A program made the position numbers and the translations under genes. The notes under the pieces were generated by a model that was not told the origin of the DNA, ran no database searches, and was given only the letters and a program-made list of their open reading frames with translations. Of a DNA stretch of 64,000 nucleotides, positions 3,960-58,710 are shown piece by piece (position 1 is the stretch's first letter; each line of letters opens with the position of its first letter). The stretch is from Deltaproteobacteria bacterium (lineage in GTDB: Bacteria > UBA10199 > JADGCS01). The DNA is taken from positions 1,494 through 65,493 of the forward strand of contig JADGCS010000007.1 in assembly GCA_015228875.1 (NCBI GenBank), written 5' to 3'.

Positions 3960-4069
3960 GGAATTTCAAAGTTGACAGAGCGCGGGTGCATGCCTCGCAA
4001 AATAGCGGCATTCAACCGCGTCCCCCAAGGGGATTTCCTTCGGGGCATCAAAGTCAAGTTAGTAACTTG
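3960..4069 (-). mobile_element. MITE copy 1 (long ~108-bp variant, inverted orientation)
   Basis: GGAATTTCAAAGTTGACAGAGCGCGGGTGC…CCCCAAGGGGATTTCCTTCGGGGC…GTCAAAGTCAAGTTAGTAACTTG. It abuts the fliR stop codon. Confidence 0.8.
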
Positions 4070-4852
4070 TCAGGCCACAACAAGAAAGGATGACAAGTAG
4101 TCCTCAAGGTGTTTAAGCGAGATTCCAAAATAATTCATGATGGTCGGGATGCTGACCGCAAAAAACACCAGAGCAATAACAATATTGAGTGTGATCGCCG
4201 CATTAAAATAAATATTCATCTGCGGTGCCGTGATCTGCACAATCCCCATGGTGAGGTGCGACAGCATGATAATGACAATCACCGGCAAAACGAGACGAAA
4301 AGACATAAAGAAGACAGCGGCAAAAAGTTTAACGAGTCCCGGAAGCACCTCTGTAAAGGACATAAAACCCGCCCCCACGGGGATGGCATCGTAGCTGCCA
4401 ACCAGCATCAGGATCAGGGCATGGTGAATATTGAACATAAAAAAAACAACGAGAAAAAAATTTCTAAGGACGACCGATAAAAGCGAGAGCTGCCCCAGAT
4501 TGGGATCGAAGAAAGTAGCCATCATCAGCCCCGCGTTCATCCCTGTCAGGTGCCCAACCATTGTGGCCATATCCATGACAACGCTGACCGAGAAGCCCAT
4601 GATCACGCCGACAAGAATCTCCGAGCAAACAGCGAGCATGATGTTGATCACCCCTGATGTCATGAGAGGCATGATGTCGTAGGACACAGCGGGGGCAATA
4701 AGAAACGCGATCCCCACAGGCAGAATGACCGTCACCACAATACCAATCTTGACCTCAGAAAATACGGGCAGGCTCATAAACAAGGCCGACAAACGGATAC
4801 TCATCATCACTGCAAACAGAAAATGATTGATGTTGTAATCAAGAATGCTCAT
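4070..4852 (-). CDS. fliR: Flagellar biosynthetic protein FliR
   Basis: 260-aa polytopic membrane protein between fliQ and flhB. FliR-like hydrophobic profile. Confidence 0.9.
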   Translation of the reverse strand: MSILDYNINHFLFAVMMSIRLSALFMSLPVFSEVKIGIVVTVILPVGIAFLIAPAVSYDIMPLMTSGVINIMLAVCSEILVGVIMGFSVSVVMDMATMVGHLTGMNAGLMMATFFDPNLGQLSLLSVVLRNFFLVVFFMFNIHHALILMLVGSYDAIPVGAGFMSFTEVLPGLVKLFAAVFFMSFRLVLPVIVIIMLSHLTMGIVQITAPQMNIYFNAAITLNIVIALVFFAVSIPTIMNYFGISLKHLEDYLSSFLVVA

Positions 4853-5118
4853 TGAATGTATTTATACCCCTCTCCCAAAAACATGTTGGACAGTCTGATG
4901 ATTTCACCAAGCATCCAGGGAGCAAAAAGAATGATCGACAGAAAAATGGCGATAAGTTTGGGGACAAAACTAAAAGTGTACTCATGAATCTGAAAGATGG
5001 CCTGCGCGAGCGACATAAGAACGCCGACCACAAAACTTGCCACAAGGACCGGCGCCGAAATCAACATGGCACTGTACATGGCTTTTTGGGCAATGGTCAT
5101 TACGAGATCTATCGACAT
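4849..5118 (-). CDS. fliQ: Flagellar biosynthetic protein FliQ
   Basis: The ~89-aa core MSIDLVMTIAQKAMYSAMLISAPVL… is typical FliQ. The track ORF extends to 5166, but a start at 5118 fits FliQ length and the fliP stop at 5124. Confidence 0.85.
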   Translation of the reverse strand: MSIDLVMTIAQKAMYSAMLISAPVLVASFVVGVLMSLAQAIFQIHEYTFSFVPKLIAIFLSIILFAPWMLGEIIRLSNMFLGEGYKYIQ

Positions 5119-5123
5119 AATCT

Positions 5124-5897
5124 TTACCTGAAACTCCTGATTAAAGATGTCACCACAAGATCCCACCCGTTCACCACCACAAAAAGCATCACCTTAAACG
5201 GCAGTGAAATGATCACGGGCGGCAAAACCATCATCCCCATGGATAAGAGAATCATGGCCACAATCATATCCATCACCACAAACGGGATATAGAGCATAAA
5301 ACCTATCTGAAAGGCCGTTTTTAATTCTGAGATCACAAACGCCGGGATCAAGACCATTGTGGGCAGGTCTTCAAACTTTTCGACAGGACCCGCCTTTGAA
5401 ATCTGCAGCATTAGATTCACGTCGCTGGTCCTTGTCTGCCTGAACATAAAGTTTCTTAAGGGTGCTTCAACCCTCTTAAACGCCACCTCCTCGCTAATCT
5501 GCCCGTCAAGATAAGGCTTGATGCCGTTTTTGTTCATCTCGGTAAAGACGGGGGTCATGATGGCAAAGGTCATAAAAAGCGAAAGACCGATAAGAATCTG
5601 GTTGGGAGGGGCCTGATGCAGACCAATGGCCTGCCTTAAAAAAGAAAATACGATAATGATCCTTGTAAAAGAGGTCAGACTGATAAACAGGGCCGGCAAA
5701 AAAGTAAGAAAGGTGACAATGAGAAGGATTTTGATGGGGGTGGCAAGCCCCTGAGTCTGATCAAGCGGGATATTGATGCTGATTGCATTTCCGGGAGCGG
5801 CGCTTTGGGCCTGCGCCATTGCCTGATCGGAACACAAGACCACGGCCAGAGGCACAAAAAATAATAAAAACAAAATGAGCCCTTTGTTTATCTGCAT
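5124..5897 (-). CDS. fliP: Flagellar biosynthetic protein FliP
   Basis: 257 aa with a signal peptide and FliP family motifs (LIVTFLTFLPALFISLTSFTRIIIVFSFLRQA, MGMMVLPP). Confidence 0.95.
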   Translation of the reverse strand: MQINKGLILFLLFFVPLAVVLCSDQAMAQAQSAAPGNAISINIPLDQTQGLATPIKILLIVTFLTFLPALFISLTSFTRIIIVFSFLRQAIGLHQAPPNQILIGLSLFMTFAIMTPVFTEMNKNGIKPYLDGQISEEVAFKRVEAPLRNFMFRQTRTSDVNLMLQISKAGPVEKFEDLPTMVLIPAFVISELKTAFQIGFMLYIPFVVMDMIVAMILLSMGMMVLPPVIISLPFKVMLFVVVNGWDLVVTSLIRSFR

Positions 5898-5926
5898 TTT
5901 GCTCCCTGTTTTTTTATTGATGGACT

Positions 5927-6862
5927 TTACGCAAGTTTTTTCAAGCCTTTGAGCTTTTCCCTTACCCTCATTGCGGCCGAGGCCTGTTCCCCGCTTAAAG
6001 TTGTCCCGTCTGCACCGGCGGGTTGATCTGTGCCTGAAGCTGAAGTCTTGTCTGCAACTGCCCTCGACACATATTTTTTTTCTGCAATTGAACCAAACTC
6101 TACCTCCCCGCTGCTGGCGTAGAAATCGATATCAGCCAGAAGACTGATGTTGGACTCGGTGGCACCCACCAGATATTTTTTTCCCAAGGCATCCACAATG
6201 AGTACCCTTGATTTGGGACTGATCATTTGTTGAGCGATAATTTTGAGTTCGGCACCTTTACCACCCATAAGAAGTCCGCCAGATTTTTTCTGCAGCCATT
6301 TCCATAACAGGGCAAGCAGAACAACAACGACACCAAGCGCCAGTGTGGTGAACATCATTTTCATGAACATGGGGTTAAAGCTGCTCTTGGGCACTTCGCC
6401 GAGCACCACAGTGTTTAAGGGCATCTGCGGTTTTTCTCCGAGTTTGACGCCGTTTTTTAAGTCCTCCTTGACGATAAAATCTGTTTTTTCAGGAAAATCG
6501 TTTTTGACCATTGAATTAAACACCGCGTCTTCTTTGGAGGGTTCTTGTGCCGCTTCGTCGTGGGAGCCTTCGATAGCAGAATCTGCACTTTCTTCGTCAT
6601 CGACAGGTTTTTCTGTATCTGTCCCGGCCGCTTCGACAGGTTTTTCTGCGGACTCGTCTGCTGTGGCCCGTGTGTCTTTATTTACAATCTTGGTCTTGGT
6701 CTGTATGGCCCTGGCAACGGTCATGACCGGTTGTGACAAAGAATCCTGTGTGACAGCCGCGTGCGCAGAAGATGCTGCGGCGAAAACACGGGTTCCGGTA
6801 AAAACCAGAAGAAAAGCCACACAAAAAAACACTGCCAAAACACCTGTCTTTGCTTTTGTCAT
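5927..6862 (-). CDS. fliO: FliO/FliZ-like flagellar protein with a long acidic N-terminal extension
   Basis: The C-terminal ~120 aa have one TM helix plus a FliO-like segment (LKIIAQQMISPKSRVLIVDALGKKYLVGATESNISLL). Position between fliN and fliP is as in fla operons. Confidence 0.6.
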   Translation of the reverse strand: MTKAKTGVLAVFFCVAFLLVFTGTRVFAAASSAHAAVTQDSLSQPVMTVARAIQTKTKIVNKDTRATADESAEKPVEAAGTDTEKPVDDEESADSAIEGSHDEAAQEPSKEDAVFNSMVKNDFPEKTDFIVKEDLKNGVKLGEKPQMPLNTVVLGEVPKSSFNPMFMKMMFTTLALGVVVVLLALLWKWLQKKSGGLLMGGKGAELKIIAQQMISPKSRVLIVDALGKKYLVGATESNISLLADIDFYASSGEVEFGSIAEKKYVSRAVADKTSASGTDQPAGADGTTLSGEQASAAMRVREKLKGLKKLA

Positions 6863-6944
6863 AATTTTTTTCTCCCCTTTTTGCCGCCCTCTTTGACCGG
6901 CAGACCACCCCCTAAAATGATGGGGTTAAAATTTCCCGTATGAA

Positions 6945-7313
6945 TTATTCTGGCAACACCGGGGCGGAAACCACCTCTACCACCTTTAGCCCAAGACGAT
7001 CATGCATCATGACAACCTCACCCCTTGCCACTATTTTTCCGTTAACCATTAAATCAAAAGGCTCCGAGGCCTTTTTGCCAATATCGATTACAGAACCGGG
7101 ACCACAGCTTAAGAGTTCTTTAATGCTGAGCTTGACACTCCCTAAAAGCACGTCAACCCTTACCGGCAGCTCCTGCAAATATGCGGGAATAACAGGATTA
7201 CCGCCGGTTTTTTTTGCTGCGTCTGCCCCTTGCAGGGCGGGAATGGCGGGCCCATTCTGAACAGATTGTTCCGTGTTGTCTGCCTTGGTTTGTCCGCTGT
7301 TTTCCTCGGCCAT
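6945..7313 (-). CDS. fliN: Flagellar motor switch protein FliN
   Basis: 122 aa. SpoA/FliN C-terminal domain (VRVDVLLGSVKLSIKELLSCGPGSVIDIGKKASEPFDLMVNGKIVARGEVV). Confidence 0.9.
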   Translation of the reverse strand: MAEENSGQTKADNTEQSVQNGPAIPALQGADAAKKTGGNPVIPAYLQELPVRVDVLLGSVKLSIKELLSCGPGSVIDIGKKASEPFDLMVNGKIVARGEVVMMHDRLGLKVVEVVSAPVLPE

Positions 7314-7340
7314 AAAAGCTCCTCTTTTTAATACATTTTT

Positions 7341-8288
7341 TTAATACATTAATTCTTCAACACGCACGGCGAAGTTGCCATCTACAACACCGATGGTCCC
7401 TTTAACAACGGGCTTGTCGTACTGGTACACTGTGACCTGCGGGCTTGTCTTGTCCCAGGAAAAAACCTCACCGGCCTTGAGATTAAGAAAGCGGTCAAAA
7501 GGGATGCTGATCTGACCCAACGAGACATTAAGGTCCAGATCTGACGAATAAAATGCGTTGGTCACCGCCGCTTGCCAGAGCGGGTCATCCTGGCGGCCCG
7601 CAACGTGGGTCCTTTCGGCCGCCTTTTCTTCGAGATAACTGGCAAATGTCAGGGGAATCGCCAACGAAAATTTAAAGCTGTCCTTTTCTTTTTCGGTCAC
7701 CAACTCAACCACCAGATGTTTTGTGTAAAGCTCTTTGTCCTGGTCTTCAATGGCAAATTCTGTGTTGACCAGCTTGAGATCCAGTTTGCCAAGATAGGCA
7801 AAGGATCTGGTGATATGCAGACAGATTTTTTCCATGATCTGTTTTAAAAAATATTGTTCAATCTCTGTGAGGATCTCATTTTCTTTATGGCTCTCCGCAT
7901 TTTCTCCGCCCAGATAATCGTTGAGGAGAAAGTAAAAGGTCTCAATGCTCATGTAGACCAAAAAGGATTCTTTTATGAGCTCTGTTGTGAGTTGAGAACA
8001 AAAACAATTTTCCCGGAATTGGTATTCAGCAAGGTTTTCGACCTGCTCTTTTTCTCTTTGAATGGCACAGTCTTCGAAATAATTTAGTTTCCAGTCTTTT
8101 TCGATGGAGTCTGTTAGTTTTTCCAGCCCCTTTTCAAACACCGCAAGATCAAGCGTTTTTTTCTTTTTTTGCTCGAAATCAAACCGTTTGAAATGACCCT
8201 TAAAGACACGGCTTGCGGCGCTGATGTCCATCGCCCCGGTCTCCCGAAGAATATCATCAAGAACATTCTGTGGTAATAAGTCTTTCAT
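7341..8288 (-). CDS. fliM: Flagellar motor switch protein FliM
   Basis: 315 aa. FliM middle domain plus a C-terminal FliN-like SpoA domain (KAGEVFSWDKTS…VVDGNFAVRVEEL). Sits between fliL and fliN. Confidence 0.85.
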   Translation of the reverse strand: MKDLLPQNVLDDILRETGAMDISAASRVFKGHFKRFDFEQKKKKTLDLAVFEKGLEKLTDSIEKDWKLNYFEDCAIQREKEQVENLAEYQFRENCFCSQLTTELIKESFLVYMSIETFYFLLNDYLGGENAESHKENEILTEIEQYFLKQIMEKICLHITRSFAYLGKLDLKLVNTEFAIEDQDKELYTKHLVVELVTEKEKDSFKFSLAIPLTFASYLEEKAAERTHVAGRQDDPLWQAAVTNAFYSSDLDLNVSLGQISIPFDRFLNLKAGEVFSWDKTSPQVTVYQYDKPVVKGTIGVVDGNFAVRVEELMY

Positions 8289-8314
8289 ATGATTCTGCCA
8301 GCAATTTTTTCCCG

Positions 8315-8422
8315 CAAGTTACTAACTTGACTTTGATGCCCCGAAGGAAATCCCCTTGGGGGACGCGGTTGAATTACTCCATTTTGCGAGGAAAGCACCC
8401 GCGCTCTGTCGACTTTGATTCC
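8315..8422 (+). mobile_element. MITE copy 2 (long variant) in the fliM-fliL intergenic region
   Basis: CAAGTTACTAACTTGACTTTGATGCCCCGAAGGAAATCCCCTTGGGGGACGCGGTTGAAT…GCACCCGCGCTCTGTCGACTTTGATTCC. Confidence 0.8.
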
Positions 8423-8477
8423 TATACATCGAGTTACAGGTCAAACCACTGAAGCGGACAGCGTAAAGCGTCCCTCA

Positions 8478-9041
8478 TCATTGAATCGTGAACTCCGTAA
8501 AATAAATACTGAGCACCTTGCCCTTGCCCAGAATCTTGTTGACCGTTTTGACTAAATTTTCCTTAAGAAGATTTTGTGATTGATTGTCCAGGAGCTCGCG
8601 TAGTGTAAAATCGCTCAACACAAAGATCATCGCATCCCTGAGTTGTGGATTTCTGACCGCGATTTCTTCTTTAATGCTCTCGCTCGCAAGTTCGAGCGAC
8701 AACACGACTTTAAGATAATGAACCTTTTCACGGTCAAAGATGCTCACAATAAAGGGATCGTAATTGTGAAAGATTCCGGAATGCCCCCCTTCGAGCATCT
8801 CCTGTGTTGCCACGGATGCCTCTTGCGCACCCGCTTGCTGGGCCGCATCTGCCCCTGCCTCTTCGGGCAAAGGCCCCTGCTTTGGGCTGATAACAAAGGC
8901 AAAGACCAGACCGACCACTGCCGCTGTGACTGCCGAAGTGATGACAGGGATAAGCAGGGCCTTGATCTTGGATTCTTTTTTTTCTTCTTCTTCGCCTTCT
9001 TCTGCTGCAGCCGCACCTTTTTCTGGTTCTTTTTCTGCCAT
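8478..9041 (-). CDS. fliL: Flagellar basal body-associated protein FliL
   Basis: 187 aa. Acidic N-terminus, a single TM helix, and a FliL C-terminal domain (…VLSDFTLRELLD…KVLSIYFTEFTIQ). Confidence 0.85.
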   Translation of the reverse strand: MAEKEPEKGAAAAEEGEEEEKKESKIKALLIPVITSAVTAAVVGLVFAFVISPKQGPLPEEAGADAAQQAGAQEASVATQEMLEGGHSGIFHNYDPFIVSIFDREKVHYLKVVLSLELASESIKEEIAVRNPQLRDAMIFVLSDFTLRELLDNQSQNLLKENLVKTVNKILGKGKVLSIYFTEFTIQ

Positions 9042-9137
9042 AACAACTCCTTTTATTTACCCTTTGGTTTCTCCCTTACCATGTCAGAGTCAAAATTTCA
9101 GCAAAAACTGTCAAAATTTACACCTTTTGCCCTAAAG

Positions 9138-9170
9138 AAAAAAAGCGCCTTGTCGAGTGGCGCTTTTTAT
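9138..9170. terminator. Bidirectional Rho-independent terminator between flgE and fliL
   Basis: AAAAAAA-AGCGCC-ttgtcgagt-GGCGCT-TTTTT: a 6-bp GC stem flanked by an A-run and a T-run. Confidence 0.6.
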
Positions 9171-9197
9171 ATTGATGTTTATTTATCGGCACTCAAG

Positions 9198-10472
9198 TTA
9201 ACCTCCCAGGCTCACCAATGACCCCAGCAGTTCATTGACCACAGAAATTGTCCTAGTGTTTGCCTGAAAACCACGCTGGATAATCACCAGTTTAATGAGT
9301 TCGTTCGCAAGGTCCACGTTTGACTGCTCCAGTGTCGATGACAGAACAGCCCCCCGCCCCCCTGATTCAGCGATTGCCAGGAGCGGCACACCCGAAGTCA
9401 GCGAGTCATCCCATGCGTTGTGTCCCATCCTCTGCAGGGCCTGATTGTCGGCAAACAGTGCAATACCCACCTGCCCCAGTGTCAGACGCTGTCCGTTCGT
9501 GTATGTCCCGGAGATCGTCCCGTCTGTCCCTATCTCGATGGTGTTGAGGATGCCCGACGCGTACCCATCCTGTGTGATCGACGTGAGCGAAGAATCGCCG
9601 CCAAACTGTGTGATCCCGTCTAGTCCCGTGCTGGATGCAGACAAGACCGTGCCAAAATCAAATGTAATACTTTGATCCTGTGTTGCACCAACAAAGTCAA
9701 AATCGTTGGTGAGTTCGGTCGTACTGATCAAGGCACCGTTGGGATTAAACAGCAGGGTCCCGCTTGCCTCTATCTGCGCCGTTGTCGCGCCCGTGATATC
9801 ATCGGAATCACACACCGCGTACCATTCCCATTGTTCGTTCACACCAGCGGCGCCGTTGTTCCTGTAATAGAGGGTTAAAAGATGGCTCGAACCCAGAGAA
9901 TCATACACCGTCACGCCTGCCGAGTAGTTTGAGGTGTTGATCGGATCCGCGGCGTCAAAGGCCGCCGGCGTTGCTGCTGTGGCCGTCAGGTTGGCCGCAA
10001 CAGTCACGTTGTCGGTGCTGTTGGGGGCGTTGGGTTCATAGGAAAACTGAAAATCAACCTGTTCGGAGGTCACCGAATTGTTTTCATCGACGCCAAACCC
10101 CCTGAGCCTGTGTCCCTGAAGATTGACCACGTACCCGTCTTCATCAACAATAAACTGACCGGCCCGCGTGTAAATATACCTCTGGTTCACAAAATCGTTG
10201 ACCTCAAAAAAACCCTGGCCATCAATGGCAAGGTCCGTCACGCTTGAGGTGGCCTCAAACCCGCCCTGGGAAAACTGCTGCGTGGTCCCCGCAACACGGG
10301 ACCCCATGCCGGCAATCTGGCTCGAACCGGCTACAATGTCCGAAAACTCGGCACGGGAAGATTTGTACCCCGTCGTGTTGACGTTTGAAATATTGTCCCC
10401 GATCAGTGCCGTGACAGCGCCGTTGGCATTGATTCCGTTTACGCCTGAGTAGAGTGCTTGGTAAATAGTCAT
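9198..10472 (-). CDS. flgE: Flagellar hook protein FlgE
   Basis: 424 aa. N-terminal flagellar rod/hook motif (NISNVNTTGYKSSRAEFSDIVAG) and C-terminal hook/rod motif (DLANELIKLVIIQRGFQANTRTI). Confidence 0.9.
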   Translation of the reverse strand: MTIYQALYSGVNGINANGAVTALIGDNISNVNTTGYKSSRAEFSDIVAGSSQIAGMGSRVAGTTQQFSQGGFEATSSVTDLAIDGQGFFEVNDFVNQRYIYTRAGQFIVDEDGYVVNLQGHRLRGFGVDENNSVTSEQVDFQFSYEPNAPNSTDNVTVAANLTATAATPAAFDAADPINTSNYSAGVTVYDSLGSSHLLTLYYRNNGAAGVNEQWEWYAVCDSDDITGATTAQIEASGTLLFNPNGALISTTELTNDFDFVGATQDQSITFDFGTVLSASSTGLDGITQFGGDSSLTSITQDGYASGILNTIEIGTDGTISGTYTNGQRLTLGQVGIALFADNQALQRMGHNAWDDSLTSGVPLLAIAESGGRGAVLSSTLEQSNVDLANELIKLVIIQRGFQANTRTISVVNELLGSLVSLGG

Positions 10473-10523
10473 GGTAATAACCTCCTTGTCTGTCTATTAA
10501 GAAAAGCCTTGTCCCTGTTCACA

Positions 10524-11192: not shown

Positions 11193-11208
11193 AATGTCTC
11201 CTTCTTTA

Positions 11209-11291
11209 CAAGTTACCAACTTGACTTTGACGCGGTTGAATGCCTCTATTTTGCGAGGAATGCACCCGCGCTCTGTCAGCTTTGAAATTCC
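11209..11291 (+). mobile_element. MITE copy 3 (short ~83-bp variant) between flgD and fliK, overlapping the flgD RBS region
   Basis: CAAGTTACCAACTTGACTTTGACGCGGTTGAATGCC…GCACCCGCGCTCTGTCAGCTTTGAAATTCC. Confidence 0.8.
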
Positions 11292-11303
11292 TATACATTA
11301 AAA

Positions 11304-12827: not shown

Positions 12828-12900
12828 TGTTTATCTCCTCCACCCCGCATCAGAGGCTGTCTAAATCGACAGCCTCATCACACGAGGTGCCTTGCGATCT

Positions 12901-14182: not shown

Positions 14183-14204
14183 TTAACACACCTTCAAGTT
14201 ACTA

Positions 14205-14277
14205 ACTTGACTCTGACGCGGTTGAGTTCCTTCGCTATGCGAGGCAGGCATCCGCGCCCTGTCAACTTTAAAATTCC
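14205..14277 (+). mobile_element. MITE copy 4 (short) between fliJ and fliI
   Basis: CAAGTTACTAACTTGACTCTGACGCGGTTGAGTTCC…CATCCGCGCCCTGTCAACTTTAAAATTCC. Confidence 0.75.
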
Positions 14278-14289
14278 CGGACATTACAC

Positions 14290-15618: not shown

Positions 15619-15650
15619 ATTCTGTCATCAAATAATTTTACAAGTTACCA

Positions 15651-15675
15651 ACCTGACCTTAATGCCTGTACATCA
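15651..15675 (+). mobile_element. MITE fragment (5' terminus only) between fliI and fliH
   Basis: CAAGTTACCAACCTGACCTTAATGCC matches the element terminus. The rest is missing. Confidence 0.45.
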
Positions 15676-19068: not shown

Positions 19069-19112
19069 TCTGTCTCTCCTTTCAAGCTACGAACTTGACT
19101 GTCACATCCGAT

Positions 19113-28791: not shown

Positions 28792-28864
28792 GATTTACCT
28801 CTTTATTTGGCGCCTTTGAGTGCTGCGAAAATACCCACAAGCAAAGGCGTATGGTTTATGTTCA

Positions 28865-28974
28865 GGAATTTCAAAGTTGACAAACCGCGGGTGCCTGCCT
28901 CGCATAACGAGGCGACTCAACCGCGTCCCCCAAGGGGATTTCCTTCGGGGCATCAAAGTCAAGTCAGTCACTTG
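28865..28974 (-). mobile_element. MITE copy 6 (long variant) between ssb and the sigma-54 regulator gene
   Basis: GGAATTTCAAAGTTGACAAACCGCGGGTGCC…CCCCCAAGGGGATTTCCTTCGGGGCATCAAAGTCAAGTCAGTCACTTG. Confidence 0.8.
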
Positions 28975-42408: not shown

Positions 42409-42491
42409 CAAGTGACTCACTTGACCTTGACGCGATTGAGTGCTTCTATCATGCAAAGAATGAGCCCGCGCTCAATCAGCTTTGAAATTCT
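42409..42491 (+). mobile_element. MITE copy 7 (short), starting immediately after the prolyl oligopeptidase stop
   Basis: CAAGTGACTCACTTGACCTTGACGCGATTGAGTGC…GAGCCCGCGCTCAATCAGCTTTGAAATTC. Confidence 0.75.
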
Positions 42492-42502
42492 TGGACTTCG
42501 AG

Positions 42503-43997: not shown

Positions 43998-44588
43998 ATG
44001 AAGTCATGTTTACAAGTTACTCACTTGACTTTGACGCGATTGAATTCCTTCATTTTGCGAGGAGTGCGCCCGCGCTCTGTCGACTTTAAAATTCCTATCC
44101 ATAAACATGCCGCCATCGTTTTTTTGTATTTTATCGTTTTGTTCCTCCCTTTTTTAAGCCTTGCAAAAGAAAAGAGGGATGGGCCAGACTGCAAGGGTAA
44201 GTGCTCTGTCATCAATAAACAATGCGATGCGCATTGTGCGTTAAGTCCCAACGCGGGCGATTGTCAAAAGGGGTGCAATGCCTCCTTTAAGGATGCCAAG
44301 GGTTACTGCCTGAGTAGTTGTGCCACACAGCCCACGTTTTTAGAGCCTTGTCCCGGCTCGGGGGACGACCCCTCCGTCGAAAAAACCGAGGACGACTGTC
44401 TGTATTCCTGTGAGGATCACTACAGCAACTGTGTGCTGTCCTGCAGGGGCCATTTTGAAGGCGGTTCTCCCGGGATCAAAAACTGCTACAACAGCTGTAA
44501 CGATACCTTTGCCGAGGAAGAGGGGTTCTGCAAGTTTCAGTGCAGAACCGATTTTGATTTTATGGCGGTGTGTGCGGCAGAGGAATAG
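43998..44588 (+). CDS. Small Cys-rich, probably secreted, protein whose 5' end is formed by a MITE copy
   Basis: 196 aa. A hydrophobic segment (AAIVFLYFIVLFLPFLSLA) is followed by ~26 Cys in CxxxC/CxxC arrays. Codons 5-33 are translated from the MITE copy at 44013-44095. A GGGGGTG RBS precedes the ATG. Confidence 0.5.
   Translation: MKSCLQVTHLTLTRLNSFILRGVRPRSVDFKIPIHKHAAIVFLYFIVLFLPFLSLAKEKRDGPDCKGKCSVINKQCDAHCALSPNAGDCQKGCNASFKDAKGYCLSSCATQPTFLEPCPGSGDDPSVEKTEDDCLYSCEDHYSNCVLSCRGHFEGGSPGIKNCYNSCNDTFAEEEGFCKFQCRTDFDFMAVCAAEE
44013..44095 (+). mobile_element. MITE copy 8 (short) inside the 5' coding region of the Cys-rich protein gene
   Basis: CAAGTTACTCACTTGACTTTGACGCGATTGAATTCC…GTGCGCCCGCGCTCTGTCGACTTTAAAATTCC, translated as QVTHLTLTRLNSFILRGVRPRSVDFKIP. 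Confidence 0.8.
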
Positions 44589-44978: not shown

Positions 44979-47684
44979 ATGTCGTTTCATGCCGTCAACC
45001 GCCTGCACCAGGCCCTTTCTGCATCACCCTTTGCCGCTACTGTTGCGCTTAACACGGCAGCCAGCGTTCATGCTTTGTATCACGCCCACACATTGCGGCA
45101 GCTCGCGACAGTGCTCGCAGATCAGGACAAGGCCCTCGGCACACAGATGGGTACGATTGTCAACCATACCAGATTTAAAACAAGCTCGGATGAATTTAAA
45201 ACAGCATGGGACGATTATGTGGGCCTGATTGAGCAAGGCCCTGCCCCCGAAACACCCACAACCGCACAAGTTACTAACTTGACTTTGACGCGATTGAGTT
45301 TCCTCGCCATGCGAGACATACCCCCGCGCTCTGTCGACTTTGAAATTCCCAGACATCAAGAAGATCACACCATGCTGCGTGGCAACACCCTTCTCGAAGC
45401 CATCCAGCAAAAACTTGCGTTTCCAGACACCCGATACAAATGGATGACTCAGGTTCTTGCAGGCACAACCCCTGGGAGAGCAGTAAGCGACCAGGGGCTG
45501 GCCCTCATGATGGAGGCTCAAAAGATTCAGGTCTTTCTTGGTCGTGTCCCCAAAGACGATCCTCACTTTCGTGTGCGTTTAAGCCGCGATGGGTCTCTGG
45601 TGGTTGTCACACTGGAGTGCCCCGATACTTTAAAGGTCCTCTCCGAACCCATCGTGCAACACCTGTTAAGGGCGGGATTACTGACCTACCTCTGTCGGCC
45701 ACAACCCGTCACACGCCCCCATGCCACAACAGTAAGCAGGTATGACATAGAAAAAATCCACATCATAGACAAAGAAATCGAGAGCTACACAAAATTAATC
45801 AGGGTGCTTAAAAGCGAGGGCTATGTAAAACTCTCCGAAGCAATTTTGAAAACCATACAGACCGAAAAAGGGATTACCCCGCAGACACTCATTGATGCGG
45901 CCTATGAGATCTCAAAGATCAACGAGTTGCTGGGACTTCATCTCTTGTTCACCGCGATGAAGGCCTCTCTCGAAGCAACCGAAGGATCACCACATGTTGC
46001 AGTAAAAGCCTTTATTGAGACATTACAGACATCAAACTCATCATCCTATGCAGGCAAGCTCGCCCCGGTACCTATACAAGTCCTTCACCAAACCATCATG
46101 CGGACATCCATTAGTAACCCCGACAGAAGACAATGGTTTTTGAAAGGTCTTGCGTCCCTTGGTATAATAAACCGGGAAAAAATATTGGACCAACCTCCCG
46201 TCAGCATGTCCAAAAGACGGGCCGTGAATATCAGGATATCAAGGGTCCCGGGGACATTCTTTAAGCTACATCCCAGAGGGATGCGCGGGGCATCTCTGTT
46301 AACTATTGACATTGGCATCCCTCATTCTGTCGATTACTTAAGCGAGGAGCAGCTTAAGATCCTCGTCTGCGTTACGCTTGCGACCATGGCGTTTAATAAA
46401 GACGATCCAGACGCACTGCTGGCCAATGAGCTGGATGAAAAAAGTCTTGCATTGCCAGCAACAATCCTTAAACCTGCCGCCAATATTGAGCTGTCTGACG
46501 AGCACCTTATCCAAACCGGTTTGCATCACCTTGCACAAGAACAAAGGGCAGACGTGCTGTCGACCATCAGAATGTTTCAGGAGAGTTCCTGTTTAACGGC
46601 CCCATTCTCCGGCATCCCCAACGCAGGTCATATTTTTAGGCCGCTCACAAGGTACTATGTGGTTGCTTTACGGGTCTACATCACTGTTGATGAGAGGATT
46701 TTAGAACCTCTCGTGTATGCCACGTCTCGTGATCACAGGATCACACTGCGCATCCAGTGTGCCAGCAAGGATCTTGCAAAGATTGATTCGAGGGCACTGA
46801 TATCTGCTGTCTTGAAATCTCTGGACGGCACAAGTGGCCACATGCCCTTCAGACTGCTTGAGCCCCTCATCAATCCTGACGCGGTCAATGCCTTGGTGGC
46901 GCTTGAGATCTTGCAGGCCTATCTCGCAAGCCCCGTCACGCTCCCCGAACGTATTAAAATTAATGGTAGTGAAGTAACCAAAGACGTCAGAAAAAATCTT
47001 GGCCTTGCCATGATGGCGTTACACGATTTTAGCAGATACACCGATAGTCCGCTTCTCAAGGACTTGAGCGCCGGCATGCTTGTGGTCCAGCTCTATCATG
47101 TTCAGACATGGGTCACGAAGGACGAGACAACCACCATCACCGCCCTGCCAACAGACCGCGGTATTTTTATACAGATTATGGGCAGCGAGCAGAGTATAAG
47201 TCCAAGACAGTGGCTTTATCTGCTCACAGCGATGGCCGATAACCCCGGAAAGGCTGTGAGTATACGCATCGAAGGCACAGATATCCATCTGGTTTTTGGA
47301 GAACATCATGCAGGCCATGATCTTTATGCCAACATCATCAGTGACGTGAGGTTATTACGATTTGAAGTCTTTGATCCCAACGCCAAAAGGCCGCGGGTCT
47401 CTCCAAAATTTCCTGGTAACAAGCCCGCCCACGCGAATCCAAATTTTATGAAACATTCAGAGGCCGAACGACGGGCCTTTATCAGGGCCTTGATCTGGTT
47501 TGCCTATGCCCCGATACCCGATGAGTTTAAACCAACGGCAACCGACACAATGGGTGAAATTAAAAAGAAAAGAAGGGCCATGAGTTTTGCCTATCATCCA
47601 GACAACGCGCCATCAAAAGACAACATCGAATTATTTACAACAGCCAACTCATTCTGGGACACTGTAGAAGACATGAATGAATAA
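44979..47684 (+). CDS. Large hypothetical protein, paralog A, with a C-terminal J-domain-like region (HPD motif) and an in-frame MITE insertion
   Basis: 901 aa, colinear with paralog B, with ~60 % identity in the C-terminal third. The C-terminus reads EIKKKRRAMSFAYHPDNAP…ELFTTANSFWDTVED, matching J-domain helix II-HPD-helix III. Residues ~97-125 are encoded by the MITE at 45267-45349. Confidence 0.7.
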   Translation: MSFHAVNRLHQALSASPFAATVALNTAASVHALYHAHTLRQLATVLADQDKALGTQMGTIVNHTRFKTSSDEFKTAWDDYVGLIEQGPAPETPTTAQVTNLTLTRLSFLAMRDIPPRSVDFEIPRHQEDHTMLRGNTLLEAIQQKLAFPDTRYKWMTQVLAGTTPGRAVSDQGLALMMEAQKIQVFLGRVPKDDPHFRVRLSRDGSLVVVTLECPDTLKVLSEPIVQHLLRAGLLTYLCRPQPVTRPHATTVSRYDIEKIHIIDKEIESYTKLIRVLKSEGYVKLSEAILKTIQTEKGITPQTLIDAAYEISKINELLGLHLLFTAMKASLEATEGSPHVAVKAFIETLQTSNSSSYAGKLAPVPIQVLHQTIMRTSISNPDRRQWFLKGLASLGIINREKILDQPPVSMSKRRAVNIRISRVPGTFFKLHPRGMRGASLLTIDIGIPHSVDYLSEEQLKILVCVTLATMAFNKDDPDALLANELDEKSLALPATILKPAANIELSDEHLIQTGLHHLAQEQRADVLSTIRMFQESSCLTAPFSGIPNAGHIFRPLTRYYVVALRVYITVDERILEPLVYATSRDHRITLRIQCASKDLAKIDSRALISAVLKSLDGTSGHMPFRLLEPLINPDAVNALVALEILQAYLASPVTLPERIKINGSEVTKDVRKNLGLAMMALHDFSRYTDSPLLKDLSAGMLVVQLYHVQTWVTKDETTTITALPTDRGIFIQIMGSEQSISPRQWLYLLTAMADNPGKAVSIRIEGTDIHLVFGEHHAGHDLYANIISDVRLLRFEVFDPNAKRPRVSPKFPGNKPAHANPNFMKHSEAERRAFIRALIWFAYAPIPDEFKPTATDTMGEIKKKRRAMSFAYHPDNAPSKDNIELFTTANSFWDTVEDMNE
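45267..45349 (+). mobile_element. MITE copy 9 (short) inserted in-frame within paralog A
   Basis: CAAGTTACTAACTTGACTTTGACGCGATTGAGTTTCC…CCCCCGCGCTCTGTCGACTTTGAAATTCC, read as QVTNLTLTRLSFLAMRDIPPRSVDFEIP. Paralog B lacks these ~29 residues at the aligned position. Confidence 0.85.
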
Positions 47685-47712
47685 AAAATACTTGGAATAA
47701 AAATAAAAAGTA

Positions 47713-50709: not shown

Positions 50710-50745
50710 GTTGTTAATGCATTATTAATTTAAACATGCCAATGA

Positions 50746-52734
50746 TTGGCAGACAAGGAGAGAAAAATGTTACCCACAACCCCAAGAGTATTAACCGTAC
50801 AAACAATGCAGACCCCATCCGCCCTGATACAGGCCGTCAAGAGCACCTTTACAGACCTGCCAGACGCACCCGTCATGACACCGCACCAAACAGCAGAGTT
50901 CGAAAGGCTGGGGCACGCGCTTACAAGTCAAGGAGCAACAAAACACGGCATGGCATTGGTAAGAGCCTGCAGCAATACTGCTGCGGCTTCACCTGTAGAA
51001 TATACCAAACAGATAGTACGCGCTGTCGAAGCGCTCAGCAACGTTGAGACGCCCGCCTTTACCCTCGGCGGTGTGGCACTTGCAAAGGCTGGCGAGGTTT
51101 ATGGATTAAGACCTGAGCGGCAGGCGGATCCCACAAGTACCGAACTCACACAGCAATTGGATACGGGGTTAATAACTGAAACCCTTGATGTTGATATTGG
51201 CCATGATACTGGCAGCGAAAAGTTGGAAAAACCAGAGCCTGTTTTTTATCCCCACAATACAACACCCAAGGAAGAATCCGCCGTTGCCCTTGACCAGGCC
51301 ACCCTCGCAAGAGCAAGGACCAACATGGCAGAGGCAATGACTGCGCTTGCCAACGAATCCCCCATGCTCCCAGCCATGCTGCCCCTGCACCTTTCTGCCC
51401 TTATTATGGGAGAGATCAATGCCAATGTGGATCTGAGAACCGAGGCGGTCAGCTTTATTGCAGAGAGCGTCTACAATGCCACAATTTACGGTGCGGCTGT
51501 CATTGCCAATGTTGTCGATACAGGCCGCTTTCACCTGCCGCTCACCACAATCCCCGTCACCTGGAGCTCGCGCGTAGCCGACGAGGCACCACAGGTCGCA
51601 GATGCTATTGTCAATGGCATCGAAAATGTTCAAAATATCTTAAGAATAATAAGATCCTTGCGCGTAGCATACCCCGAGGCAATGGCATCACTGGCAACTG
51701 CTAATCCGGGTGCCTTTGGACCAGAGGCGCTCAGAGAACTTGGTAACATATATCAACTGCACGAATTGGCCGCCACACACCCGGCGCAAGACCTGGTGGA
51801 TTTTATCCTTGCAGGCGACATCCCCGTCCGATTTGTGAGCTTGGGGGAAGATCATGAGCTGATTAAGGTCAGGGCGCCGAGGTCTGATGGTCAACCCGTG
51901 AACTCAACACCAAGTGATTGGGCCGATCCCGTAAGCAATTTTTTGCAACGTGCGGATTGGACAGATTATGTGCGGACTTTCGATATCAAGGAATTCATTG
52001 CCGACTCCATGCCGACAGCATCCCAAGCAGAACAAAAAGTCCTTATCCATGTCCGTGAACTTGACTATCAAAGTAATCAAAGCAGGGCCTTCGAAATACT
52101 GTTGTCGAAAATCCTGCTTCCAAGACTCAAAGAGGAGGTCACAAGCCTCAACACATGGGGGATCACCCAGTTTGACATAGTCCCTGCAATGATAGAAGCA
52201 ATGATCGGGCGCGGTGAATACCAACAGGCACTGGTGCTCTATAATTTTACGCATAGCAGACTCCAGGAGATCTCTAACGCCGTGAACAGGATCGAATACC
52301 ATCAGGAGAGACTGTTCTTGATCGGAGAACGAAAGGCGCGCAATAAATTTCTTGCACTGGCCCGCCGGATGATTCGGGATGGCAATCTTGAGGCAGCACA
52401 ACGCCTCTCTCGTTCGATGGCCAGACAGGGCAGGGGCAGAGAGCCCGTGGTCAGGATAAAACAGGGGGCCCTCTCAAAACAACTGAGTTCAGTTGTTGCC
52501 TTCATTGCCGAGTCCATGAGGTCCTTGGGGGCGCTTCCCGCAGGCGAAGCCACACTCAGTCTCGCGAGTTCTGTGCCGTCCACAGCCTCTCTGATGGATT
52601 TCCGGAAATTCGACCCTCGGCTCAGCGTCGCTGATTACCTTGCGTTGTTTGGGATCCCTGCCCCGGGAAGCAAAGATGTACCCGCCCTTGGGGTTAGCGG
52701 GGCAACGGGATTTCGTGCAGGTAAAAGGCAATAG
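50746..52734 (+). CDS. Hypothetical protein (662 aa), last gene of the putative sigma-54 operon
   Basis: Long ORF with an AAGGAG RBS, 36 nt after the paralog B stop. No recognisable domain. Confidence 0.55.
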   Translation: MADKERKMLPTTPRVLTVQTMQTPSALIQAVKSTFTDLPDAPVMTPHQTAEFERLGHALTSQGATKHGMALVRACSNTAAASPVEYTKQIVRAVEALSNVETPAFTLGGVALAKAGEVYGLRPERQADPTSTELTQQLDTGLITETLDVDIGHDTGSEKLEKPEPVFYPHNTTPKEESAVALDQATLARARTNMAEAMTALANESPMLPAMLPLHLSALIMGEINANVDLRTEAVSFIAESVYNATIYGAAVIANVVDTGRFHLPLTTIPVTWSSRVADEAPQVADAIVNGIENVQNILRIIRSLRVAYPEAMASLATANPGAFGPEALRELGNIYQLHELAATHPAQDLVDFILAGDIPVRFVSLGEDHELIKVRAPRSDGQPVNSTPSDWADPVSNFLQRADWTDYVRTFDIKEFIADSMPTASQAEQKVLIHVRELDYQSNQSRAFEILLSKILLPRLKEEVTSLNTWGITQFDIVPAMIEAMIGRGEYQQALVLYNFTHSRLQEISNAVNRIEYHQERLFLIGERKARNKFLALARRMIRDGNLEAAQRLSRSMARQGRGREPVVRIKQGALSKQLSSVVAFIAESMRSLGALPAGEATLSLASSVPSTASLMDFRKFDPRLSVADYLALFGIPAPGSKDVPALGVSGATGFRAGKRQ

Positions 52735-54576: not shown

Positions 54577-54867
54577 ATGAAAATACCGGATTTTGAATGG
54601 GATGACCAAAAGAATAATGAAAATGTTACAAAACACGGCATTTCATTCTACGAAGCACAGTACGCCTTTAAAGATCCAAAGCGTGTTATCGCTGAAGACC
54701 TTGGGCATAGCGGCAAAGAAAAAAGATATTACTGTTTTGGTTCAGTCTCCAACGGGATTCTGACGGTAAGATTTACACACAGAAGCAATAAAATCCGAAT
54801 CTTTGGTGCCGGATACTGGCGCAAAGGAAAGGCTTTGTATGAAAAGGAAAATAAATTACACAAATGA
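54577..54867 (+). CDS. brnT: BrnT-family (DUF497) type II toxin
   Basis: 96 aa. DUF497 motifs (FEWDDQKNNENVTKHGISFYEAQYAFKDP…IRIFGAGYWRKGKALYE). Confidence 0.8.
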   Translation: MKIPDFEWDDQKNNENVTKHGISFYEAQYAFKDPKRVIAEDLGHSGKEKRYYCFGSVSNGILTVRFTHRSNKIRIFGAGYWRKGKALYEKENKLHK

Positions 54868-55846: not shown

Positions 55847-55861
55847 ATTTTAAACCTCTTT

Positions 55862-58579
55862 TTACGCCGCCATCTCCGCTGTGCCCATCTGGTATATTTT
55901 TGCGAGTGATGCCGCGAGCTGTTCCAACACACCCTCGTTGGGAAGCGTGACCGTGAGTTTGAGGTTGCCGCTCTCATCGCGATCCAGACAATCAGAGAGA
56001 TTTCTTTTAAACTGCTCAATGACCTTTTTGTTTTGTTCATCTCCCGCAATGTCCCCTCCCTTTTCGCGTGGCGTGAGGACCTCGCCCATAAAAGAAAAGG
56101 CGGCGCTCAAGAGTTCTCCACCGGCCATGGCCACTGTCTCCCTCTTTTTAATCAGGGCCGCCTCTGTCACGACCTTTTGTTCCTGACTCATATCCACTGG
56201 GGCGTCAGGTTTTTGGCCCACCAGGACCTCCAGACGTCTTTTGAGTTCTTCAATACCTACAGACATGTCAACCTGAGTAATGTTTGAGTCCACATCGAGC
56301 GCGGCAAAGGCCAGCTCCTGCTTGACAGCCAGTGTGTGCAAAAGACTCTCCTCGATCGTGTCGACTGTTACCAGCAGATAGACCTGTATGGCCCTCTTTT
56401 GACCCATGCGGTGTGCGCGGGATATCCTCTGCTCCAGAACCGCGGGGTTCCATGGCAGATCAACATTGATCACCGTATTGGCGGCCTGCAGATTAAGGCC
56501 CGTGCTCCCCGCGTTGGTGGTGATGAAGACCTTGCACCCCGGGTTGTTTTGAAACTGCTTCACCAGCCCCTGCCGTTTTTTTTGCGGCACAGAACCATCC
56601 AGACGAACAAACTCGGCCCCTGTCTGTTTAATCAACGGCTCTATCAGGTCCAGCATGGTCGTCCATTCCGAAAACAACACAATCTTGCGATCCTCCTCGG
56701 AAAGAAGTGTTTTTAATAACTCTTCGAGTTCCACAAGTTTTGAGGAATAACCCGGGGCCACCTTGTTGACGAGAAACGTGCTGTCTGCCGACATGCGGCA
56801 CATCAAGAGATACTTTTGCAGACGTAAAAGATCCATCTCGGAGATGTAGGGTTTGTTGATGATGCGGCTGATGATTTTTTTGTATTCTTTATCCAGACCA
56901 AGTTGTTCGTCTGTTGGTGTGATTCTCACAATCTGTGTTGTGCGCGGCGGAAGGTCCTCCATCACCGACTTGCGTGTACGCCTAAGGAGAACGGGCTTGA
57001 GTTTCTCGCGTATTTCGTCGAGATTTTTATACCCAAGCGGCTTGCCCTTTTCGTCAACAACCTTGTACCTGTTATAAAACCTGAACGCGGGGCCCAATTG
57101 ATGTTCGCTGATAAACTCGACCACAGAATAAAGCTCTTCAAGCCGGTTTTCGAGCGGCGTTCCCGTCAGCACAAGGGCATACTTTGACCTTAATGACTTG
57201 ATGGTCTGACTTGTCTTTGCCTCCCAGTTTTTAATCCTCTGGCCTTCATCCAGAATAATCAGGTCCCATGCGACTGATTCGATCTCGATAATATCACGCA
57301 GGACCTGTTCGTAATTGCACACAGTAAAAAAACAGCCGTTATTGTACTGCCCCCCCCTTTCTTTTTTGCTGCCAAGAATCGTCTGCACAGACCTGTCAGA
57401 AAATCTGTTAATCTCTTCGCGCCACTGAAATTTGAGAGAGGTGGGGCAGACAACCAGGGCCTTGCTTATGCCCGTCTGTTTGGCCAGCAACTCTGCCACA
57501 CCAATCCCCTGAATGGTCTTTCCAAGGCCCATGTCATCAGCAAGCACAGACCGCCCGGCCCCAACGGCAAAGCCTATCCCGTCCATCTGATACGGCAGCA
57601 ACTCTGTCTTGAGGAGTGTCTTTCTTAACGGATGGTCTTTGGGATCCTTGCGGATCTCCTGCGATATTTTTTTTAGTTTTTCCAAAGACAGTTGTTGCTG
57701 AATGTATTCTTCCGCATCGGAATAAATATTGACCGCAAACCCCCGGCCCTCCAATTTTTTGATGATCGACAAAAGAGAATGAATATCTGTGACTGGTTTT
57801 TTATACACCGGCCGGATGATGGCTGCTATTTCTTCGGAGGTGGTATCGGGTGTCAACAACCGGAGCTCCGGCGACAGCTGTCCATAATGCATATGCACAC
57901 CAAAACCTTTGCGCTTGTACGGCGTGTTTTGTGCCCGTGGCGAAAATTTTGTCTTGATTTTCTGTTGGGCATACAAGATGTGCTTGCAGACCCCCAGCGT
58001 ATTTTTTTTAAAATCGGAGCACGAACAGTAAGACTGGCCTCTTTCAAACCCGCGCATCGCCACGCGATAAGTCTTGCCAGAGGTCTTGCTGGACAAAAGA
58101 TAATCTGTCCATATTTTGTTTTTATCTGTGGATGTGAGGACCATGCGCTCCTTTTTGGCCCGCTCTATCCTCTCTTGAATAGCCCTTGCCACAAGGTCCT
58201 GCTCGCTTAAACTTTCGATGGGGATTTTGGGTGTGGGTTCTTTGGCAAGCCCCAGCGCCGTTTTTTCTTCGAGGATCAGCGACAATGTGGCACCCAGGTG
58301 TTCGCAGGGGCCTTGACAGACAGAGCACCCAAAATCGAGGGCGTTATTTTTAAGGGGATTAAGGCGAATGGTCGTGACCGCATCAGACATTTTTACGGTA
58401 AAAGACTCGGCGTCCTGTCTGACCTGCTCTTCTATGTTGATCTCATACTTGCCCCCCTTTTTTATCAACTCCTCACCTCCCTGCCCCAGCAAGCGACAGG
58501 CCTGCATGTATTTAAGGTGTGACAATCGATCCTTTAAGGTAATCTCGGTTTTGTTTTGACGCATCATGGTACTCCTCAT
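55862..58579 (-). CDS. SNF2-family helicase with an N-terminal SWIM zinc finger
   Basis: 905 aa. SWIM (CSCSDFKKNTLGVCKHILYA), SNF2_N (DDMGLGKTIQ; DLIILDEGQRIKN; LTGTPLENRLEEL), and helicase C (…ITTNAGSTGLNLQAANTVINVDLPWNPAVLEQRISRAHRMGQ). Confidence 0.85.
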   Translation of the reverse strand: MRSTMMRQNKTEITLKDRLSHLKYMQACRLLGQGGEELIKKGGKYEINIEEQVRQDAESFTVKMSDAVTTIRLNPLKNNALDFGCSVCQGPCEHLGATLSLILEEKTALGLAKEPTPKIPIESLSEQDLVARAIQERIERAKKERMVLTSTDKNKIWTDYLLSSKTSGKTYRVAMRGFERGQSYCSCSDFKKNTLGVCKHILYAQQKIKTKFSPRAQNTPYKRKGFGVHMHYGQLSPELRLLTPDTTSEEIAAIIRPVYKKPVTDIHSLLSIIKKLEGRGFAVNIYSDAEEYIQQQLSLEKLKKISQEIRKDPKDHPLRKTLLKTELLPYQMDGIGFAVGAGRSVLADDMGLGKTIQGIGVAELLAKQTGISKALVVCPTSLKFQWREEINRFSDRSVQTILGSKKERGGQYNNGCFFTVCNYEQVLRDIIEIESVAWDLIILDEGQRIKNWEAKTSQTIKSLRSKYALVLTGTPLENRLEELYSVVEFISEHQLGPAFRFYNRYKVVDEKGKPLGYKNLDEIREKLKPVLLRRTRKSVMEDLPPRTTQIVRITPTDEQLGLDKEYKKIISRIINKPYISEMDLLRLQKYLLMCRMSADSTFLVNKVAPGYSSKLVELEELLKTLLSEEDRKIVLFSEWTTMLDLIEPLIKQTGAEFVRLDGSVPQKKRQGLVKQFQNNPGCKVFITTNAGSTGLNLQAANTVINVDLPWNPAVLEQRISRAHRMGQKRAIQVYLLVTVDTIEESLLHTLAVKQELAFAALDVDSNITQVDMSVGIEELKRRLEVLVGQKPDAPVDMSQEQKVVTEAALIKKRETVAMAGGELLSAAFSFMGEVLTPREKGGDIAGDEQNKKVIEQFKRNLSDCLDRDESGNLKLTVTLPNEGVLEQLAASLAKIYQMGTAEMAA

Positions 58580-58626
58580 TGATTTGTTGGTACAAAAATT
58601 CTCCCATCAACACAATTTAATGTCTA

Positions 58627-58710
58627 GGAATTTCAAAGTTGACAGAGCGCGGGTGCGTTCCTCGCATAACGGAGGAACTTAAATCGCGTCAAAGTCAAGT
58701 TAGTAACTTG
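58627..58710 (-). mobile_element. MITE copy 10 (short, inverted orientation) between the SNF2 helicase and the TPR gene
   Basis: GGAATTTCAAAGTTGACAGAGCGCGGGTGCGTTCC…GCGTCAAAGTCAAGTTAGTAACTTG. Confidence 0.8.

Follow-up and report, generated by a model that had tools for sequence, protein, structure and literature searches.

A lineage-specific family of small palindromic repeats, intergenic and in frame within genes, in a deltaproteobacterial metagenome-assembled genome

What kind of sequence can recur about once per 6 kb in a bacterial genome, lie flush against stop codons within a flagellar operon, and also be read in frame inside unrelated proteins? The question is raised by a stretch of contig JADGCS010000007.1 (positions 1,494 to 65,493) from the metagenome-assembled genome (MAG) of an uncultured deltaproteobacterium (GCA_015228875.1); this whole stretch, 64 kb in length, is referred to here as the window. 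It contains nine full copies (c1 to c9) and two mini copies (m1 and m2) of a short repeat, which the original prediction, made from the letters of the window, described as a miniature inverted-repeat transposable element (MITE). The repeat is probably a family of small palindromic mobile elements, non-autonomous and specific to one lineage, that has spread through one MAG and behaves in the manner of the Rickettsia palindromic elements (RPEs). The dispersed, high-copy, non-autonomous, and inserted character conveyed by the MITE label is retained in this account, while the terminal inverted repeats and the target-site duplication that the label also implies are absent. Copies located in frame inside protein-coding genes (c7 and c8 in the window and others on further contigs) were the main point that the earlier description missed.

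The repeat is real and dense, as had been claimed. The left core AACTTGACTTTGACGCG, with up to three mismatches allowed, occurs nine times in the window as compared with 0.15 occurrences expected from shuffles, and the right core motif occurs seven times as compared with 0.00. A profile built from the copies and then run against the window recovered the nine full copies with E-values of 1e-25 to 4e-30, and also two short matches that cover just the left end. Ten clear copies plus fragments had been proposed; the family stands, with nine full copies, and the fragments correspond to the two mini copies (Table 1). Likewise, the two size classes exist but measure 90 bp (91 bp in c9) and 117 bp (115 bp in c2), represented by six and three full copies, respectively, rather than the estimated ~83 and ~108 bp. 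Six of the full copies are on the plus strand and three on the minus strand, in agreement with the earlier statement that both orientations occur.

The 90-bp unit runs from CAAGTT to CCTnnACAT and can be written as CAAGTTAcTAACTTG-ACTTTGA-CGCGG...tip...CCGCG-CTCTGTCAACTTTGAAATTCCTnnACAT. Its 5′ end is a 15-bp palindrome, CAAGTTA-C-TAACTTG, which had already been recognized and occurs in each of the 11 copies with no more than two mismatches. The centre is an imperfect hairpin of about 60 nt, and the 3′ end is a 19-nt tail. The arms of the hairpin, TTGAC/GTCAA and CGCGG/CCGCG, are nearly invariant, and the tip varies in sequence among copies with its pairing kept; mean identity between copies is 88% in the flanks and 70% in the centre. 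Pairing was found in 89.5% of cells at the hairpin positions vs 25-50% in controls with slid partners, and compensatory changes at three hairpin pairs gave a value that was reached in 13 of 500 shuffles. The folding energy of individual copies is -22 to -41 kcal/mol on either strand, with z-scores of -2.1 to -3.2, and that of the hairpin core is -16 to -23 kcal/mol in most copies. As G-U pairs favour neither strand consistently, they provide no argument for an RNA of one polarity.

The long form of the element carries an optional module of 27 bp (GATGCCCCGAAGGAAATCCCCTTGGGG), which is itself a hairpin, as had been noted, and is identical in c1, c2, and c5. The module is located at the junction GACTTT^GACGCGG, and it is here too that m1, having kept the left end and the right tail, is missing its 57-bp central hairpin. 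The second mini copy, m2, is more degenerate, retaining the left palindrome plus TGTCACAT. The imperfect inverted termini of the earlier description are present as TTGAC...GTCAA and CGCGG...CCGCG, but they are internal (columns 16-20/98-102 and 53-57/89-93 of alignment A1), and in the alignment of the window copies the tips themselves, CAAGTTAC... and ...CCTnnACAT, are not complementary.

One indication that these copies arrived by insertion comes from the flagellar operon. The FlhB protein of the window (100% identical to MBF0104138.1) has its nearest relatives at 51-58% identity, and three such relatives were compared over a total of 63 kb (GCA_040960375.1, GCA_024233595.1, and one Logan assembly). 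All three share the gene order fliI-fliJ-orf-fliK-flgD-flgE-fliL-fliM...fliR-flhB-flhA, and a profile search over these three loci found no copy of the element. The spacer between fliI and fliJ is 107 bp in the window and 2, 4, and 4 bp in the relatives; that between fliK and flgD is 111 bp vs 20, 17, and 46 bp; that between fliL and fliM is 189 bp vs 27, 13, and 0 bp (adjacent or overlapping by one base); and that between fliR and flhB is 142 bp vs 21, 7, and 35 bp. The flanking genes keep their lengths, with FliM at 315 residues and FliR at 260 residues in both the window and the relatives. Spacers of 0-46 bp in the relatives, together with these conserved gene lengths, indicate that the elements are insertions into very short spacers. 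This also accounts for their placement. The original prediction was correct that the TGA codons of fliR and of a prolyl oligopeptidase gene abut an element and that another copy (c3) adjoins the flgD ribosome-binding site, from which a few bases separate it. However, the insertion-site preference that it read from this position is not needed, as native spacers of only a few bases leave no other room.

Evidence that the family extends well beyond the window, and into coding sequence, came from a search of 5.8 billion proteins with the joined translations of the element's open frames. Seventeen proteins were matched, all from the same MAG (HQM16_ tags) and located on contigs of 15 distinct lengths, none of which matches that of the window's contig. 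The copies are thus dispersed beyond this region rather than being a local duplication, in keeping with the mobile family first proposed. The number of host proteins is at least 17, a lower bound because two element-bearing proteins of the window were not returned by the search. As read from the matched protein sequences, the element peptide is embedded in unrelated proteins in either orientation. The hosts include MqnE (aminofutalosine synthase), an HI0933-type FAD enzyme, a CoxM-like FAD-binding subunit, a TPP enzyme and a DsbD-like protein (both with the long form), an inositol-phosphatase-like protein, and others. A radical SAM protein encoded on another contig (P0125) has two head-to-tail copies at its C-terminus with no spacer between them, in reverse frames 0 and 1; this tandem arrangement might reflect an intermediate of the multimeric or rolling-circle type. 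Four further proteins, P0128 (HypE), P0130 (Hsp20), P0133, and P0134, start with the element peptide (MKQVTNLTL..., MHRNSKVD...). Since the element is open-reading, the start codons of these proteins may have been called too far upstream.

One case of in-frame insertion is MqnE. In a scan of 1.84 billion representatives, almost all homologues aligned to this protein in two stretches with a break at residue ~252, and residues 253-282 (ISRNFKVDRARAHFSHDGETQPRQSQVSNL) were without a counterpart in alignments with 8, and then with 60, diverse homologues. Without these residues the protein has the usual 11-residue loop. At exactly 30 codons (90 nt), the gain equals one unit length, and an insert junction reads ...FIPLAFNSISRNFKVD.... 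An AlphaFold model of the protein has a pLDDT of 91 and a pTM of 0.90 overall; in 10-residue blocks over residues 251-290, between a strand and a helix, the pLDDT is 43-52, and residues 254-273 are below 50. In this one protein, the predicted structure places the insert in a surface loop that the MqnE fold would tolerate. The HI0933-type enzyme similarly aligns to PDB 9x7q in two blocks, with 36 residues between them vs 6 in the structure, a gain of about 30. PDB alignments of the CoxM-like and inositol-phosphatase-like hosts are too weak around the insert to be informative.

Within the window itself, c8 makes up residues 97-126 of HQM16_02505, a gene called by PGAP as reading through the element in frame. 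No homologues of this 901-residue host were found among the 5.8 billion proteins, and a codon-usage score was used instead: the 96 codons before c8 score 0.30 bits per codon in the host frame, well above the other five frames and close to the 0.31 of fliI. In HQM16_02500, c7 makes up residues 6-35, just before a hydrophobic stretch resembling a signal peptide. A third gene, encoding a TPR protein (58695-59861), runs into c9, which supplies its last five codons and its TGA stop.

The dimensions of the element suit such locations. The standard lengths of 90, 117, and 33 bp are combinations of modules of 33, 57, and 27 bp, and all are multiples of three; the chance that all three module lengths would be multiples of three is 1 in 27. 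Both intragenic copies of the window, c7 and c8, are exactly 90 bp in length, and two intergenic copies carry frame-breaking indels. Three of the six frames are free of stop codons in both the 90- and the 117-bp forms, namely forward frame 0 (QVTNLTLTRLN..ILRGMHPRSV.FEIP.H), reverse frame 0 (M.RNFKVDRARVH.SQN.GIQPRQSQVSNL), and reverse frame 1. With a length that is a multiple of three and three stop-free frames, an in-frame insertion would add only a loop of 30 or 39 residues to its host.

The surroundings of the copies bear on how the element may move. No fixed-length direct repeat flanks any of the 11 copies in the window, and the gain in MqnE, being exactly one unit length, adds no duplicated bases and leaves no room for a target-site duplication. 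Instead, the six bases that follow the element resemble its own first six (CAAGTT), matching at 38 of 66 positions as compared with an expectation of 16.7 ± 3.5. None of 20,000 trials with random hexamers from the window reached 38, and when c6 was left out the observed value was reached in one trial of 20,000. On other contigs, inserts in reverse orientation are preceded by NL (AACTTG) three times and also by DL, SL, and NS, and those in forward orientation are followed by QV, PVT, and QG; of these, NL and QV agree with a CAAGTT-like flank. The N preceding the MqnE insert is native, as it is found in the closest homologue, so that the flank motif is a property of the target. It is not a true duplication either, since the left CAAGTT stays the same beside differing right flanks. 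To our knowledge, no such similarity between the flank and the 5′ end of the element has been described for RPEs. Two copies, c2 and c6, have 11 bases in common (TCGAGTTACAG; 8429-8439 and 42498-42508), consisting of the last base of the element and the next ten; at c6 they supply, on the other strand, the TAA stop of the RlpA-like gene. This stretch may represent either a favoured target or an extension of the right end that is optional. A TTAC motif 5-9 nt to the right of the element was also considered but was rejected, as in four of six cases it is the reverse complement of the stop codon of the neighbouring gene.

HUH-type transposases and site-specific recombinases integrate conservatively beside sequence resembling their own end. 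Elements derived from IS200/IS605 and elements of the IS91 type lack both target duplication and terminal inverted repeats, have hairpins near their ends, and adjoin a short, specific sequence at one end; IS91 inserts next to CAAG or GAAC. The flank motif of the window element is only loosely conserved by comparison, no HUH gene is known from its genome, and the likeness to these systems is no more than a lead. From the sequence of the flanks, it is tentatively suggested that a unit-length intermediate, single-stranded or circular, might be integrated conservatively beside sequence like the element's own 5′ end, without target duplication and by a route unlike that of a staggered-cut DDE transposase; a classical DDE route is very unlikely. 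No transposase is present among the genes of the window, and the mobilizing enzyme, perhaps a HUH/tyrosine transposase or a site-specific recombinase, would be encoded elsewhere in the genome. Copies would persist where they do little harm, in short intergenic spacers in either orientation, even within an operon, and in coding sequence too.

A more elaborate version of this proposal, in which the element is a coding-adapted parasite that combines conservative insertion by CAAGTT-like cores with a modular origin of 33 + 57 + 27 bp nested at GACTTT^, is unlikely. If true, the modular nesting would keep every form translatable on both strands, and this would be the first RPE-like system with an insertion rule and a modular origin that are readable from sequence.

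Other explanations for the repeat account for parts of these observations. A classical MITE, that is, a deletion derivative of a DDE insertion sequence with terminal inverted repeats and a duplication of fixed length, would be expected to be small (<300 bp), to occur in many dispersed copies and in both orientations without a transposase of its own, and to form a hairpin, and size classes such as those seen here are common among MITE families; even an inverted repeat is present, although internally. It is the extreme ends that do not fit, as they are not inverted repeats, and the 11 copies in the window lack a flanking direct repeat, for which the MqnE gain also leaves no room. Nor does an invariant left CAAGTT beside differing right flanks behave like a true duplication, and no parent insertion sequence is found within the window, so that a classical MITE is very improbable. 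Less easily set aside, but still rather doubtful, is a REP/REPIN or IS200/IS605-derived element moved as single-stranded DNA by an HUH enzyme, either a REP-associated tyrosine transposase (RAYT) or TnpA(Y1), which would amount to one version of the mobilization proposed above. The asymmetric ends around a hairpin, the absence of terminal inverted repeats and of target-site duplication, the conserved arms with a varied but paired tip, and a short flank motif resembling the element end all agree with such an origin, and intragenic REPs have been documented in other bacteria (PMC3733652). On the other hand, the element is a single long unit of 90 bp, neither a REP of 20-40 bp nor an inverted doublet; it has no GTAG tag, with CGTC occurring only within the stem foot on the reverse strand; its flank motif is loose (58% of positions), as opposed to the fixed tetra- or pentanucleotide of IS200/IS605 targets; and no Y1 or RAYT gene is found within the window.

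Two further alternatives would have the repeat serve the host. It could be a regulatory element (a terminator, a promoter, an mRNA-processing or -stabilizing hairpin, or a regulator site) that was multiplied because it is useful, and its stable hairpin core, the six copies within the flagellar operon, and the perfect 7-1-7 palindrome, which looks like the site of a dimeric DNA-binding protein, would suit such a role; effects on the stability of mRNA are known for ERIC, REP, and Correia elements (PMC2229807). The original prediction had likewise suggested co-option as terminators or promoters, which the data do not support. A scan of 3000-20000 found no promoter-like (sigma-70) site at any copy and one weak terminator-like match, inside c1; no T-run follows the hairpin; copies in a single operon point in both directions; and that operon is free of the element in the three relatives. 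A regulatory site would, moreover, be senseless inside the coding sequences of MqnE, flavoenzymes, radical SAM, and DsbD-like proteins, and no Rfam family matches the repeat. A regulatory role is accordingly even less probable than a classical MITE. The least credible possibility is that the repeat codes for a small protein or represents a shared protein motif, suggested by reverse-strand frames that run from ATG through 31-34 codons to a stop in c3, c4, and c7. Read on the other strand, the conserved CAT of the right end becomes an ATG, and the reverse frame is open in six of the nine copies. Against this, substitutions across the nine copies are spread evenly over codon positions (33/32/27), and the same DNA is read on the opposite strand and in another frame in other hosts, which together indicate that the element peptide is not under selection. 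In addition, c2 and c9 carry frameshifts, c6 lacks the ATG and contains a stop codon, and three copies lie antisense to the surrounding genes.

The arrangement around two of these reverse-strand frames was observed separately. At c3 and c4 (11296-11306 and 14282-14292), the reverse-strand open reading frame of the element has its ATG 5 nt beyond the stop codon of the upstream gene (TAGTTTTAATG and TAAGTGTAATG), and in c4 this small frame ends 0 nt before the ATG of the next gene (TAAATG), an arrangement that resembles translational coupling. Mycobacterial interspersed repetitive units (MIRUs) likewise place a small open reading frame between the stop codon of a gene and the start codon of its neighbour in a manner like translational coupling, and this resemblance is a further point that can be cited for a small gene.

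A mobile palindromic family with RPE-like behaviour remains the best account of the copies, and its closest counterparts are found among described repeats. RPE-1 to RPE-10 of Rickettsia are hairpin repeats that occur between genes and in frame within conserved genes (Ogata et al., 2000; Ogata et al., 2002), as summarized in two later accounts (PMC10969869; PMC2229807). Like the window element, RPEs are described there as hairpin repeats of ~100-150 bp with no coding capacity for their own mobility and no known transposase, restricted to one lineage, and located both intergenically and in frame in unrelated conserved genes, where the added peptide is tolerated by the fold. Unlike RPEs, the window element is from a different phylum, has 48% G+C rather than an AT-rich composition, and is shorter, at 90 bp, with three nested size classes that are all multiples of three; no sequence relation is expected. 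RPEs are also described with terminal inverted repeats, given as 12 bp in a table of Delihas (PMC2229807), while the repeat of the window element is internal.

Other families share some of these features. YPAL/RU-2 of Yersinia shares internal inverted repeats, a composition that is not AT-rich, and the absence of TA ends (Delihas 2007/2008, PMC2229807), and in-frame fusions have been recorded for ERIC, the 107-bp Correia element, and YPAL (PMC2229807). In contrast to the window copies, however, these elements duplicate their target (3-26 bp, or TA), are mostly intergenic with occasional fusions, and have no sequence similarity to the window element. REPs and REPINs are palindromic, abundant, and mostly intergenic, often just after stop codons; some are in frame and encode 20-30 residues, and they show no target-site duplication and are probably moved as hairpin DNA (PMC3733652). 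Opitutus and Thauera are among the bacteria with recorded intragenic REPs (Di Nocera et al., 2013, PMC3733652). REPs differ in their length of 20-40 bp, their GTAG/CGTC tag, and their usual occurrence as inverted doublets, as compared with a single 90-bp unit with asymmetric ends.

Database comparisons returned no established family. Searches of viral contig, plasmid, and phage collections gave no match to the element, and nothing in Rfam reached the gathering threshold over the whole window. A relaxed Rfam search around c3 returned a sub-threshold chance match to a plastid UTR family, and a scan of JGI metagenomes returned three matches that proved to be chance hits to the 22-nt left palindrome; none of these is an element. 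As no match was found in the Rfam, plasmid, phage, or viral collections, the family was filed as new, lineage-specific "protein-coding palindromic repeats". It is placed neither in the RPE sequence families, from which it differs in phylum and base composition, nor among strict MITEs or REPs.

Several points weigh against this account. Movement is proposed from a comparison in which the nearest relatives share only 51-58% identity in FlhB. The evidence for copies on other contigs consists of PGAP protein calls, and some of the N-terminal cases are possibly miscalled starts. Two exact-pattern scans of representative genomes gave no stretches among the matches listed, and absence of the element from other cultured or representative genomes is not firm. 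Finally, three open frames are also obtained in shuffles, with P ~0.10 for 90 nt and ~0.07 for 117 nt; as 7-10% of dinucleotide shuffles reach this number, adaptation to coding sequence is not claimed from the open frames alone.

The best-known examples of in-frame "selfish" palindromes in essential genes come from Rickettsia, where they have been described as unique to a reduced intracellular genome. The presence of a dense family of this kind in an unrelated, flagellated, metabolically rich uncultured bacterium indicates that an RPE-like strategy arises elsewhere, and the density in the window may imply hundreds of copies per genome outside obligate intracellular bacteria. The family provides a data set on how proteins absorb random 30-residue loops and on how elements move without a transposase of their own. 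It is also of practical relevance, as the repeats inflate intergenic spacers within operons, create miscalled start codons and C-terminal tails in automatic annotation, and add spurious "shared motifs" between unrelated proteins of the MAG.

Table 1. Copies of the repeat and of its optional module in the 64-kb window
Feature	Position	Strand	Form	Location
c1	3953..4069	-	long, 117 bp	between fliR stop (TGA, flush with CAAG) and flhB start; gene-sense orientation
c2	8315..8429	+	long, 115 bp, 2-nt deletion	between fliL and fliM; antisense to operon
c3	11209..11298	+	short, 90 bp	between fliK stop and flgD ribosome-binding site/start; antisense to operon
c4	14195..14284	+	short, 90 bp	between fliI stop and fliJ start; antisense to operon
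m1	15641..15673	+	mini copy, 33 bp	between fliH and fliI
m2	19083..19107	+	mini copy, 25 bp	between fliE and fliF
c5	28858..28974	-	long, 117 bp	upstream of ssb, in the same orientation as ssb
c6	42409..42498	+	short, 90 bp	nearly fills gap between two convergent stop codons; left edge flush with prolyl oligopeptidase TGA, RlpA-like TAA within shared right flank CGAGTTACAG
c7	44013..44102	+	short, 90 bp	in frame within annotated HQM16_02500 (43998-44588)
c8	45267..45356	+	short, 90 bp	in frame within annotated HQM16_02505 (44979-47684, 901 aa)
c9	58620..58710	-	short, 91 bp, 1-nt insertion	between TPR gene and SNF2-family helicase gene
Module core CCCCGAAGGAAATCCCCTTGGGG	4023..4045	-		identical at 8339-8361 (+) and 28928-28950 (-)

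A scan of the window for tRNA and tmRNA genes found none. Among the protein-coding genes, three consecutive large open reading frames at 44979-52734 (901, 915, and 662 residues) have no Pfam match and form an orphan cluster beside two copies of the element. A cluster of pilin- or pseudopilin-like genes at 30879-37679 encodes proteins with N-terminal methylation motifs, a GspH-like protein, and two large proteins without a Pfam match (977 and 519 residues). The gene at 54577-54867 (+) encodes a BrnT-family ribonuclease toxin of a type II toxin-antitoxin system.

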